Source of the DNA: a virus
Direction: 5' to 3' (one strand)
Length of the DNA stretch: 64,000 nt
Virus record (IMG/VR): IMGVR_UViG_3300045588_000033
Span: 1 to 64,000 of that record
The position numbers and the translations under genes were made by a program. Below the pieces are notes generated by a model, which was given only the letters and a program-made list of their open reading frames with translations, searched no databases and was not told where the DNA came from. Below, piece by piece: positions 2,853-10,605 of this stretch. How positions within the stretch are numbered: the stretch's first letter is position 1; each line of letters opens with the position of its first letter.

Positions 2853-3093
2853 TCTTTTTTCTTTTAGTTTCCTCAAGAGGATTAAAATACTTATCCCATT
2901 TAGAAAAATGTATTGATTTAATAGTTGCTGCATCTATCATATCCATGTTACCTTTTTTTTCAGCAAGTTTTTCTAATGCTAAATGAATTAAATCTGCTGT
3001 AACATAATCTATATGAATTCCTACCATGTTAAGTGCTACTAATAAATAGTGCTGCTTATCTTCATAATCTTTAATTTCTACTTTTCTTTCCAT
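2842..3093 (-). CDS. Hypothetical protein
   Basis: 83-aa ORF. Confidence 0.65.
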   Translation of the reverse strand: MERKVEIKDYEDKQHYLLVALNMVGIHIDYVTADLIHLALEKLAEKKGNMDMIDAATIKSIHFSKWDKYFNPLEETKRKKNDK

Positions 3094-3119
3094 AATTTAG
3101 ATTTTAGATTGTTAATAAT

Positions 3120-3262
3120 TGGTGGCTCTAGTGGGAATCGAACCCACCTTGTATACTGTAATATGTAATATGAATATGAAGGAGAGCTACTCACCCATAC
3201 TTCTCTATTTATTACCTCTACCCACTCACAGTTCAGGAGCTACCTTTACCTGTTATAGAGCC
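3120..3262 (-). ncRNA. tRNA-like RNA (143 nt) with a ~68-nt insert in place of the anticodon loop
   Basis: Acceptor stem GGCTCTA/TAGAGCC, discriminator A, encoded CCA, T arm GTGGG-TTCGATT-CCCAC, D-like stem CAGG/CCTG, anticodon-like stem ACTGT/ACAGT. Confidence 0.7.
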
Positions 3263-3471
3263 ATGTACGGGTCTTTCCCCGATTGTCACCATTGCCAATT
3301 TTGCGCATCAACTTGGACTTGCTTCCTAAAAGCTTTTTCTCCTATCTATTTAGAGCTGACCATTGGTTTTCACTCTCACTTCTTAATCAGTGATTTACTT
3401 CACTTAAAATAAATGCTGCAAATACTACAATTGCAATTATAAGATATTCCATTGTTATTTAATTTAATTAG

Positions 3472-3625
3472 TAGTCAGGACAGGAGCTGCCCCTGCACGT
3501 AACTTAGGTTTTCCGCTTTCACTTTTTTAGACCCTCCGTGAAATTGTTAGATGTGTCCTCACCAGTTATCCCTGTTACAGACCAAACTCTACCTCTTGCG
3601 TCTCTCATATTTCCGCCACCTGACT
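3472..3625 (-). ncRNA. Degenerate class II (Leu-like) tRNA frame (154 nt) with large central insert
   Basis: Acceptor stem AGTCAGG/CCTGACT, 5' TGGCGGAA...AGACGC D arm, T stem GCAGG/CCTGT with non-canonical loop GGCAGCT. Confidence 0.55.
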
Positions 3626-4169
3626 ATATTACTATTAGCTCTTTAGCATTCTACTCCCAGCTCCGAGGAATTGTATCTTACTTAGCCCATCTCACCGCTG
3701 TACGGGTACTAAAGTTTACTAATAGTTGAGGTTGAGAATTCCTCTGTGTTATAGAGAACTTATACTCTAATTTTTAGTACTCCTCATCTCATAACGGTTT
3801 GCTTACCGTATCGGGAATAACACATTTAATAAAACTAAGGCGTATTACACTATACTACTTTCTCTTACGAGCCTGTGACAGTTCTAGCTGCCCATTTCCT
3901 TAGTTTTAACAACATACCCTGTCAGCCCAAGTTGCTGAATATATTATATAAGGCTTAAATCCTATACACGACTTTCACCCATGAGCCTAGTCTAATATCC
4001 TTCCACAAACAACTCCACCTTGGTATGGATTCTAACCTTCTTTAGACTCTTGCTTACGTAGGGCCCTATAGTTTTCTTTTAATATTGGTTATTCATTTGC
4101 TTCCAGCAGGGTAATTTTATACTGTGCCAAAATTGTAAAATAATTATGCGTTTGGCGGATTATAAATTT

Positions 4170-4224
4170 TCATAACAAGGTATAAGCGCAATTGAAAAAA
4201 ACTGCGCCTATACGGATGTTAGGT
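4170..4224 (-). repeat. attC-like site 1
   Basis: TCATAAC 4170-4176, arms GTATAAGCGCA/TGCGCCTATAC (10/11), GTTAGGT 4218-4224. Confidence 0.75.
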
Positions 4225-4225
4225 G

Positions 4226-4537
4226 CTATTGTAAAGACAACCACTCCTCACCTTTAGCAGTTATTTCAAAATCTCCCCTACAACCACAGCTACAACCATC
4301 AACTAAACCACGTTTCATTAATTGCCTCATTTTTGCTAAAATCAATTTTTCAGAAGCAATATTTTTAGGCATTACATTTCTGACATCTCTATCATTTTCA
4401 AAATACCAGTTACACCAATGCCCTTTGTGTTTTAGCAAAAATTCCATAATAGGTTTGTCTGGTATCTCTTTACATTGAGAAACAACAGCACCTAACACGG
4501 GTTTGGCAAAAAAGCCGTTTTGTTCTTCGTTTGACAT
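4226..4537 (-). CDS. Cassette protein, wHTH-like with CxCGC motif; start codon lies inside the loop of site 2
   Basis: 103-aa ORF, LMKRGLVDGCSCGCRGDFEITAKG; stop abuts site 1. Confidence 0.75.
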   Translation of the reverse strand: MSNEEQNGFFAKPVLGAVVSQCKEIPDKPIMEFLLKHKGHWCNWYFENDRDVRNVMPKNIASEKLILAKMRQLMKRGLVDGCSCGCRGDFEITAKGEEWLSLQ

Positions 4538-4615
4538 ATTGTTCTAATTTTTAAGTTTTGTGCTTCGATTTAGCTTTTCGTTTCGGCTTCTTCGCCAAGC
4601 CCGAACCCGTTAGCG
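4490..4615 (-). repeat. attC-like site 2
   Basis: ACCTAAC 4490-4496, arms 4498-4517/4584-4603 (17/20), GTTAGCG 4609-4615. Confidence 0.8.
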
Positions 4616-4621
4616 GTCAGT

Positions 4622-4918
4622 TTAGTGAGAAGCATTGTAATAACCACTCCAAATTTTCTCTTTGCACTCAAATAAATTTGATAATTGTTTACCTAAATTA
4701 TATTCACGCATTGGGTTTCTGCAACTATCTATTTCTTTTTCTAAGTCTTTAATTCTTTGCTCGACCATTTGCTCAAACATTTCAGGAATATTATCTTGAA
4801 TTTCTTTTACTATTTCATTTTGAAATTTTGCCAAATCTTCTAATTCTTTACGTTTTGGAATACCTAACATAAATTTAGTAGTTAGCTTTAATAATTTATT
4901 TGTTACTTTTTTTGACAT
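4622..4918 (-). CDS. Cassette protein, helical hypothetical (likely start MSKKV)
   Basis: ORF 4622..4954 between sites 3 and 2. Confidence 0.7.
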   Translation of the reverse strand: MSKKVTNKLLKLTTKFMLGIPKRKELEDLAKFQNEIVKEIQDNIPEMFEQMVEQRIKDLEKEIDSCRNPMREYNLGKQLSNLFECKEKIWSGYYNASH

Positions 4919-4945
4919 AATATTTATTTGTTTAGAAAACCGAAC

Positions 4946-5080
4946 CGCTAACACTCGTTTTGTGCTATTACGGCAATTTCAGTTAATATTAAATTTTGTT
5001 GTTACGTTCACGTTTTTCGGTAGCCGAAAAACCTCTTTTCGCTTAGTGCCGTAACATCACAAAGCGAGATAACGTTATCA
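4946..5080 (-). repeat. attC-like site 3
   Basis: CGCTAAC 4946-4952, arms 4954-4975/5047-5068 (19/22), inner hairpin GTTTTTCGG/CCGAAAAAC, GTTATCA 5074-5080. Confidence 0.8.
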
Positions 5081-5362
5081 AACATTGATACGTTTTCTGT
5101 AACCGTTGCAAATATCAAGAATGAAATCTATTCTGTTTTCTTCTGTATCAAAACCAGTCATCATTTCTTCAAGAGTATCTTTCAGTATTCCCACTTGCTC
5201 ATCAATAAGTTTGTGCTTTTGTTTTTGCAGATATTCTTCAGCGTATTGACTACACATCAATTGTATTTTATACCTTCCCATTTCAGAGTTCCCAAACTTA
5301 TCAATAATCTCGTAAGCCATTTCTTGAATGGTTTTCTCTCTATCTATTTTTACTCTTTCCAT
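5078..5362 (-). CDS. Cassette protein, hypothetical
   Basis: 94-aa ORF; TGA stop overlaps the core of site 3. Confidence 0.7.
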   Translation of the reverse strand: MERVKIDREKTIQEMAYEIIDKFGNSEMGRYKIQLMCSQYAEEYLQKQKHKLIDEQVGILKDTLEEMMTGFDTEENRIDFILDICNGYRKRINV

Positions 5363-5404
5363 AATTCGAATTTTAGTTCATTTATAATCTTTTCCGCAAC
5401 GCTT

Positions 5405-5458
5405 TGCTAACAATAGATAAGCGCAACTTTGCAGTCGCTTATCTATATCACGTTATAA
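5405..5458 (-). repeat. attC-like site 4
   Basis: TGCTAAC 5405-5411, arms ATAGATAAGCG/CGCTTATCTAT (11/11), GTTATAA 5452-5458. Confidence 0.8.
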
Positions 5459-5695
5459 ATCAGTTTGCTTTTTACCAGTTCCTTTACACCAATCACAATC
5501 ACTTATCAATAGTTTGCCTGAACCTGAACAAGCAATGCAAACCGAACTTATAACAGTAGGTTGGTGCAATTTACTTAGTATCGCATCCGAAACAATATCG
5601 AAGTTATCTTCGTGTATCGCTTTTTCAGTTCTGCTACGGTCAATATATCCGCCATATTCTTTTAATAATTCAATAATTTCGTGCTTCGTTATCAT
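5453..5695 (-). CDS. Chimeric protein: N-terminus encoded in site 5 plus DnaJ-type zinc finger (CxxCxGxG x2) from the next cassette
   Basis: 80-aa ORF; CIACSGSG...CDWCKGTG; TAA stop is part of the TAAC core of site 4. Confidence 0.75.
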   Translation of the reverse strand: MITKHEIIELLKEYGGYIDRSRTEKAIHEDNFDIVSDAILSKLHQPTVISSVCIACSGSGKLLISDCDWCKGTGKKQTDL

Positions 5696-5745
5696 AATAT
5701 TTTATTTTTAATTCGTAAACTCCACCAACCTACATTACGTTATAA
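5548..5745 (-). repeat. attC-like site 5 (long protein-coding loop)
   Basis: TTATAAC 5548-5554, arms GTAGGTTGGTG/CACCAACCTAC (11/11), GTTATAA 5739-5745. Confidence 0.75.
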
Positions 5746-5749
5746 GCAA

Positions 5750-6049
5750 TTATGCTTCTTTTAGTGGTAGCCAAATTTCGGTATCTACAAAGCATTTTTC
5801 TTTACCTGATAAAGCATTGTACTTTTTAACATAGTCTTCTGCTACTTCTTTTGTGGTACAAACAACGTCTTCATTATTATTATCGTACCATCTTACAATT
5901 GCATAACTTCCAATAACAGCATCTTGGCTCAATGCGAGTTTCTTTTCCATCCAATCAGAATATGCAGGTATGTTGTCGCTAAATACCAAATCTGTTTCAC
6001 GAGAATATTCAATCCTCAATTTCATTCTTTGTTCACTTACTTTATTCAT
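5750..6049 (-). CDS. Chimeric hypothetical protein (likely start MNKVSEQ inside the loop of site 6)
   Basis: ORF 5750..6136; crosses site 6 at LSQDAVIGS. Confidence 0.7.
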   Translation of the reverse strand: MNKVSEQRMKLRIEYSRETDLVFSDNIPAYSDWMEKKLALSQDAVIGSYAIVRWYDNNNEDVVCTTKEVAEDYVKKYNALSGKEKCFVDTEIWLPLKEA

Positions 6050-6104
6050 TCTATTATATTTTTCGTTAATAATTCGCACTAAGCCAAGTTGCATTCCGTT
6101 ATAT
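5911..6104 (-). repeat. attC-like site 6 (long protein-coding loop)
   Basis: CAATAAC 5911-5917, arms 5919-5937/6074-6092 (16/19), GTTATAT 6098-6104. Confidence 0.75.
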
Positions 6105-9801: not shown

Positions 9802-10605
9802 ATGAGCAAAAATAAAAGTAAAACTAAAAGCGTTAGAAAGAGAATGTTCTATGATATAGAGGTTTCTTATTTCATAGTTAGTGCTTGGAGATTAGGATAT
9901 AATCTTTCTATCCAACCACATCAGATTATTAAGTACCCTTCCGTAATTTGCCTATCATGGAAGTGGGAAGGTGAGGAAGAAGTTCATAATCTTAGATGGG
10001 ATGATGATCAGTGTGATAAAACTCTAATACAGGACTTTGTCAAGGAGCTTAATAAAGCCAATCAAATAGTAGCACATAACGGAGATAGATTTGATTTAAA
10101 ATGGTTACGCACAAGAGCAGTCCTACACGGGCTACACATGAACCCTAGATATGAAACTATAGATACTCTTAAAATAGCTAAGTCACAATTTAGTTTTGCT
10201 TCTAATAAACTAGATGAACTAGGAAAATACTTAGGAGTAGGACAGAAGATACCTACTGATTACTCTTTATGGGACAAAATATGCCAAGAGAAATCTGAAG
10301 ATGCACTTAACGATATGGTTAAATACTGCGATGAAGATGTTAGACTTTTAGAGCGAGTGTATCAAAAATTAAGACCTTACGCTAAGGCTCAGTTTAACTA
10401 CGGCAAACTTTACGGCAATGATAACTTTGCTTGCCCAGAATGTGGAAGTCTACACCCAAGGGTTACTAAATGCTACACTACTGCAATGGGAGTAAGAAGA
10501 TATTACTTGCAATGTAAAGAGAGCAAATGCCAAACTAATTACCCTGTAAGTAACCGTACGTACCTCAAAATGATAGAGCACCAAATACTAAATCCAATAA
10601 TTTAA
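9802..10605 (+). CDS. DnaQ/RNase H-like 3'-5' exonuclease (DEDDy) with C-terminal zinc ribbon
   Basis: YDIE, HNGDRFD, YCDEDV motifs; CPECG...CKESKC. Confidence 0.85.
   Translation: MSKNKSKTKSVRKRMFYDIEVSYFIVSAWRLGYNLSIQPHQIIKYPSVICLSWKWEGEEEVHNLRWDDDQCDKTLIQDFVKELNKANQIVAHNGDRFDLKWLRTRAVLHGLHMNPRYETIDTLKIAKSQFSFASNKLDELGKYLGVGQKIPTDYSLWDKICQEKSEDALNDMVKYCDEDVRLLERVYQKLRPYAKAQFNYGKLYGNDNFACPECGSLHPRVTKCYTTAMGVRRYYLQCKESKCQTNYPVSNRTYLKMIEHQILNPII

Follow-up and report, generated by a model that had tools for sequence, protein, structure and literature searches.

Why should small phage genes begin inside the loops of hairpins that resemble recombination sites, and read on through the recombination core into the rest of the protein? 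We addressed this question in an array at positions 4173-6101 of IMG/VR virus record IMGVR_UViG_3300045588_000033, a 91.5-kb phage contig that is 69% complete (CheckV); the window analysed is its first 64 kb. Five small minus-strand genes lie here, with six imperfect hairpin sites between and around them. We consider it rather likely that they form a recombinase-less array of five single-gene cassettes, part of an integron-like system of Bacteroidota and phages, with two precise exchange points. The sites and open reading frames (ORFs) are as follows.

4173-4221, minus strand: site S1, a short hairpin that closes the array at its 3' end; no gene follows it, and its arm offsets are unlike those of S2-S6.
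4226-4537, minus strand: ORF A, 103 aa; starts at 4537, within the loop of S2, and reads across the core in frame 2.
4493-4612, minus strand: site S2; ORF A has its leader, its ATG and its first 13-14 codons in the loop.
4622-4918, minus strand: ORF B, 98 aa; its ATG lies outside S3.
4949-5077, minus strand: site S3.
5078-5362, minus strand: ORF C, 94 aa; its ATG lies outside S4.
5408-5455, minus strand: site S4, a short hairpin with a 40-nucleotide (nt) loop region.
5453-5695, minus strand: ORF D; starts in the S5 loop, with 47 residues (5555-5695) followed by Val.
5453-5551, minus strand: body of ORF D, 32 residues that form a zinc-ribbon-like tail (CxxC...CxxC) with its own inverted repeats of ~16 nt at both ends, which are translated.
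5551-5742, minus strand: site S5; its loop carries the leader, ATG and 47-residue head of ORF D, and the AAC at 5552-5554 is an in-frame Val.
5750-6049, minus strand: ORF E; its ATG is at 6049 in the S6 loop, and a head of 44 residues (5918-6049) is followed by Val.
5750-5914, minus strand: body of ORF E, 54 residues with a predicted beta-beta-alpha-beta fold.
5914-6101, minus strand: site S6; its loop carries the leader, ATG and 44-residue head of ORF E, and the AAC at 5915-5917 is an in-frame Val.

Sites S2-S6 share one geometry. Read on the plus strand, each consists of TAAC, 1 nt, a stem, the second half of the stem, 5 nt and GTTA. In gene orientation this becomes TAAC, five unpaired nt, stem, loop, stem, 1 nt and GTTA, and it is in this orientation that we speak of a 5' core (TAAC) and a 3' core (GTTA). 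When the whole 91.5-kb contig was scanned, the geometry was confined to the array on that strand, the three other matches having different offsets, and a chance origin of the sites was rejected on this ground. The same geometry recurs in Muminvirus (Flavobacterium phages) and in many environmental phage contigs. S2 is 76% identical to positions 3003-3120 of the Muminvirus locus L001, and the likeness stops at both cores. Searches of the window for transfer RNAs (tRNAs) and Rfam families gave no match for any of the sites.

Three of the genes, ORFs A, D and E, start in a hairpin loop (of S2, S5 and S6, respectively) and continue across the 3' arm and the GTTA core, then through an inverted repeat of ~16 nt that is also translated, into the body. 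In S5 and S6 the GTT of the core is an in-frame Val codon, preceded by 47 and 44 residues. These features had been proposed in the original prediction, which was made from the letters of this stretch alone, and that observation is confirmed. The prediction had also let S2 supply an N-terminal part to ORF A. This holds in so far as 14 residues precede the core, but GTT is out of frame there, being split over codons 14 and 15 (GTG TTA). The 14-residue head is a by-product of the site and not a domain, because the S2 homologue in Muminvirus is read in another frame, in which it heads a methyltransferase, and because the ORF A family normally starts later, most homologues beginning just before a QCKDIPDKP motif. 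Cassette versions of the ORF A body have at least eight different N-terminal extensions that cross the core and the inverted repeat. Frame 0 was found in 14 of the 16 heads of at least 15 residues at phage sites and in all seven of at least 40 residues; its use by nearly all long heads is what a free exchange of heads and bodies would require. Pfam assigned no firm family to ORFs A-E, the sole hit being a weak match of the D body to the DnaJ zinc finger (CXXCXGXG).

Signs of such an exchange come from the homologues of ORFs D and E. Searches with both gave 69 proteins, which, when split at the junction, fell into 13 head clusters and 47 body clusters joined in 59 pairings. Val occupies the junction in 62 of the 69. 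Body clusters joined to the E head numbered 33 and those joined to the D head 14, while the E body was found on nine head clusters and the D body on five. Proteins P0012, P0015 and P0018 have the D body on other heads; that of P0012 is identical at the protein level to the body in the window and is joined to an unrelated head. Another head is shared by P0018, where it precedes a D body, and P0029, where its body is of the E type. At the junction itself, the two residues ahead of Val belong with the head and covary with the 5' arm; those that come after Val belong with the body, and the only sequence common to all pairings is about 6 nt around the core (T-GTTA). Judging from these proteins, heads of the S5 and S6 types are interchangeable in nature, as had been predicted, and partner changes fall exactly at the Val codon when the halves are searched separately.

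The long heads are under purifying selection, with ratios of nonsynonymous to synonymous substitution rates of 0.11 (D) and 0.17-0.26 (E), which indicates that they are translated coding sequence. In the structural model of ORF E, a two-helix head is followed by a beta-beta-alpha-beta body, with the boundary at residue 45, at the junction; in the model of ORF D the head again has two helices and the zinc-ribbon tail is poorly predicted. When the E model was searched against the folds of the Protein Data Bank, nothing matched at E ≤ 0.001. A weak likeness of the E body to an anti-CRISPR protein was not counted as evidence.

Two kinds of variant were seen beside these two-part proteins. In P0041, P0014, P0017 and P0068 the junction motif occurs twice, or an extra N-terminal zinc ribbon stands ahead of the E head. 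They look like three-module chains (head-head-body), which suggests that more than two modules can be joined. At L016:1943-2323 and L021:1273-1578 the E head lies within longer ordinary ORFs, where the core reads TTTA or ATTA and no 5' site is left. These look like fossil junctions that became fixed as normal genes.

DNA-level scans of viral contigs found nothing for the D body, nor for the E body, and an alignment of the E head against metagenomes gave only six loci. In an all-against-all DNA comparison of 99 loci, similarity was mostly limited to the sites, and shared bodies were too few for breakpoints to be counted.

Where, then, do genes enter and leave such arrays? Four recent events answer this, all of them between near-identical relatives and none in the window itself. 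filifjonk9-1 and mumin6-1 are identical over 6 kb save for a 1581-bp block of three genes, both ends of which fall in the 5' core. mumin6-1 and tooticki6-1 differ by a 499-bp block of one gene, which likewise ends in the 5' core, and by one replacement that begins at a 5' core. The metagenome contigs L017 and L018 (99.8% identical) differ by an indel of ~0.8 kb that consists of a site and a methyltransferase gene starting in its loop, again with ends in the 5' core. The ends of the indels lie in cores of 4-7 nt whose flanks are unrelated. Because these gains, losses and replacements all map to the 5' core, the unit that moves in recent time is a site together with the gene downstream, a complete ORF with its own start. 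The interpretation in the original prediction is therefore only partly supported. It had held that re-ordering creates chimeras or switches start-less cassettes on and off; the combinations of heads and bodies bear out the former, but the recently moved units are complete genes and not start-less. Its crossover, the in-frame GTT, is not the core used in the recent events.

Several lines of evidence bear on which strand folds. Four contigs carry the same E head, and in these the arms beside the cores differ but compensate each other. Together with the strand-biased energies of the arms, these compensatory changes show that the stems do pair. We counted 43 G·T mispairs on the sense strand and 7 on the other strand across 35 distinct phage sites; in 76 bacterial sites the counts are 128 and 50. 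Arms were more stable on the sense strand in 34 of the 35 phage sites. As mispairs and arm stability are both one-sided, the strand that folds is the sense (coding) strand of the genes. In classical attC sites the G:T-rich strand is the bottom strand, which is the one recombined and is cleaved in its AAC triplet (PMC5027507). The AAC of the sense strand here sits in the 5' core, upstream of the loop.

The ends of the bodies carry a further mark, repeats of ~16 nt by which the cores are extended. Those belonging to the same body match as inverted repeats at 8.8 of 16 positions, compared with 4.9 for ends that do not belong together and 5.1 for the two flanks of one site. Over the first 5 nt the values are 4.3 of 5 for own and 1.95 for non-own ends. 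By analogy, an inverted repeat of this kind around each body is the signature of an integron cassette. Locating the crossover core from the complementarity of cassette ends alone was dropped, since the test is symmetric between both cores.

These results can be combined into one scheme. Each site is an imperfect hairpin that folds on the sense strand and whose loop supplies the translation start of the gene downstream; in three cassettes, the loop also supplies 14 to 47 N-terminal codons. The 5' core (TAA|C) is the exchange point of the recent gains and losses, moving complete genes. The 3' core, which in the long-head sites is the in-frame GTT Val codon, is a second exchange point for heads and bodies, older but precise, and repeated re-pairing there during evolution has produced families of two-module small proteins. 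A host-encoded tyrosine recombinase of the Xer/IntI-like kind, working on the folded single strand, might carry out the exchange. The 3' core might be reached by recombination of the hairpin of the opposite strand, or by an exchange of the second strand that swaps the whole hairpin interior between two sites. That both feet of the hairpin are used, one moving whole genes and the other, in a common frame, re-pairing helical heads with small effector bodies (many of them zinc ribbons), is a more tentative proposal, to which we give somewhat less than even weight.

The relatives of the array offer candidates for such a recombinase. At least 120 species genomes, nearly all of them from Bacteroidota, contain the 5' element of S2, often as sites of ~126 nt in arrays. 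The commonest recurring neighbour at these Bacteroidota loci is a small recombinase with best scores against Xer and integron-integrase models. Where these Xer/IntI-like recombinases adjoin chromosomal arrays, their scores stay under the integron-integrase cut-off and they match the model in two stretches. At three loci (L082:3318-4118, L089:6172-7284 and L030:4023-5156) the recombinase gene is found beyond the last site, on its downstream side, and faces the array, unlike the divergent intI of classical integrons. The link between the recombinase and the chromosomal arrays is suggestive and no more.

Several points weigh against the scheme. The recombinase occurs at just 6 of the 120 bacterial loci, and in three of those six it adjoins detected sites. 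No tyrosine recombinase was found in the contig (69% complete; no PF00589 match) or in seven related phage contigs; a weak PF00589 match in one related contig proved to be a helix-turn-helix-like ORF of 124 aa and was rejected. Ongoing re-ordering in this genome is thus not borne out. At the DNA level, no recent event was found at the 3' core; the evidence for this junction is protein mosaicism. In the D-type sites of L012 and L014, unrelated heads lie inside identical stems with an identical leader, which implies that some exchanges end within the site and fits homology-driven swapping better than cleavage at a core. The extra unpaired bases, fixed at 5 and 1 nt, lie on the arm with the recombined AAC, whereas classical attC sites have theirs on the opposite arm (PMC5027507). 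Finally, because the folded strand is the sense strand, a structure in the mRNA remains compatible with the sequence.

The L012 and L014 sites lead to the explanation that survives best beside this one, namely exchange without a dedicated recombinase. The arms, the leader and the inverted repeats, all conserved, would act as short homology linkers, or replication would switch templates on stalling at the hairpin feet, and the general recombination or replication of the phage would swap the modules. The 50-nt 5' element and the 3' arm of L012 and L014 are indeed fully identical around their unrelated heads, and the D gene of the window shares its site and both inverted repeats with L003, differing only in ~68 nt of body interior. 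This explanation would also account for the absence of a recombinase from these phage contigs, and an RNase H-fold exonuclease gene (PF13482) lies nearby at 9802-10605. However, the ~6 nt (T-GTTA) common to the junctions are too little for homologous exchange, yet the exchange is codon-exact; the recent indels end in cores of 4-7 nt with unrelated flanks; and the conserved core, fixed 5/1 bulge and strand-specific G·T pairs point to a structure that is recognised as such. We regard exchange by homology or template switching as unlikely.

A second possibility keeps the attC sites in their classical orientation, with the in-frame GTT as sole crossover. A cassette would then be a body plus the site that follows it, and three cassettes would be start-less, needing the start codon of the loop upstream. 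Head and body change partners exactly at GTT, the extra unpaired bases lie on the arm equivalent to R''-L'' of the classical top strand, and the genes would be on the top strand, as they are in integrons (PMC5027507). Against this, the four recent indels and replacements map to the other core and shift complete genes, and the G·T mispairs and arm stability indicate a folded sense strand whose AAC also lies in the other core. We judge this arrangement quite improbable. Even less credible is a role of the hairpins in the mRNA (processing, stability or start-codon control), with module boundaries coinciding merely as conserved parts: the sense strand is the folded one, G·U-type pairs are strongly enriched on it and the loops enclose leaders and start codons, but this leaves unexplained why DNA gains and losses end exactly in the cores, why each body has its own inverted repeat as in integron cassettes and why the same sites form chromosomal arrays near an Xer/IntI-like recombinase, and no Rfam family matched.

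The recombination-site scheme, with its two cores, can be set beside known systems. With integrons and clusters of attC sites lacking integron-integrases (CALINs), the array and its relatives share imperfect hairpins with AAC/GTT cores, a second paired box and a variable loop. They also share self-complementary cassette ends, of which the first bases pair with their own inverse core, and strand-specific folding with G:T mispairs. The gain and loss of whole genes in a conserved triplet (the four events among relatives), methyltransferase cargo (in relatives) and a recombinase of the Xer/IntI kind near chromosomal arrays complete the resemblance. The array differs in that its sites fold on the sense strand and lie upstream of the gene they move with, carrying its start, whereas the classical attC lies downstream and folds on the antisense bottom strand; the placement of the bulge differs as described above. 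There is also no IntI, attI or cassette promoter Pc here, which a complete integron requires and a CALIN does not.

Phage attC clusters have been described before. They occur in virulent phages, one of them a Polaribacter phage whose cassettes carry methyltransferase genes, and IntI1 recombines them as single strands (Qi et al. 2023, PMC9892861); that work has no account of ORFs that cross the sites or of re-paired protein halves. When we scanned the Polaribacter phage, it had only two sites of the S2-S6 geometry, which does not establish that it has the same site family as the array. The early regions of Muminvirus (L001, L002 and L145) hold arrays made up mostly of DNA methyltransferase genes, several of which start in a hairpin loop, with heads of 14-20 residues in various frames.

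The promoter early stem-loops (PeSLs) of T4-type phages are intergenic promoter-terminator stem-loops that are thought to act via homology (Arbiol et al. 2010, PMC2839356; Comeau et al. 2014, PMC4122927). Like the sites described here, they are conserved stem-loops beside small, variable early genes; where related phages differ by an insertion, deletion or replacement, these elements mark its ends. The array sites differ in having AAC/GTT cores, cassette-specific inverted ends, strand-biased pairing and ORFs that run through them, and the combination of a terminator stem-loop and an early promoter between ORFs that defines a PeSL is lacking in the array.

In shufflons and the invertible tail-fibre segments of phages (R64 Rci, Mu Gin), inversion switches among silent segments stored in one genome. 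There too, site-specific recombination at short intragenic repeats gives a constant part alternative partners. The difference is that each gene has one pairing per genome here and variety exists between genomes: each head and each body occurs once in the contig, which has no recombinase to switch them.

Another parallel is man-made. Synthetic attC sites have been placed within protein-coding sequences, where they are engineered linkers, and were tested with IntI1 (Nivina et al. 2020, PMC7439510). They share with the array a structure-specific recombination site that lies within an ORF and still codes for a functional peptide. The arrangement described here is natural, widespread and has produced many head/body pairings, so that by analogy the array looks like a natural counterpart of these synthetic coding sites. 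In the literature we searched, in-frame shuffling of heads and bodies at such sites was not found.

Some observations concern the surroundings of the array. The S1 hairpin (4180-4213, minus strand) has an intrinsic-terminator-like score and is the sole terminator-like site among the six; S1 may also end transcription of the array. Sigma-70-like matches in the array were below the level of shuffled sequence. Directly downstream of the array is a stretch of ~1 kb without ORFs (3100-4165). At 3119-3147 (minus strand) it has a tRNA-like T arm, acceptor and CCA, and the model for transfer-messenger RNA (tmRNA) matches only the 3' end (E-value of 6.5e-4); ARAGORN found neither a tRNA nor a tmRNA. 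On the other side, the PF13482 exonuclease gene opens a plus-strand block, as in Muminvirus, and could belong to the recombination machinery of the phage itself.

The known role of integrons is to move whole genes, with sites regarded as non-coding. Here a related type of site is translated, and its core codon forms the joint in a large natural set of two-part proteins, which points to the building of new proteins through recombination at a structure and not at a sequence. Such loci offer natural examples for protein engineering with embedded attC sites, and they bear on how cassettes become joined with their sites, a question that is still open. They also give module limits for hundreds of unannotated small phage proteins, which can guide functional tests of heads and bodies. 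If both feet of the hairpin are in fact used, these phages would have a natural structure-specific system for the combinatorial assembly of early or anti-defence proteins.

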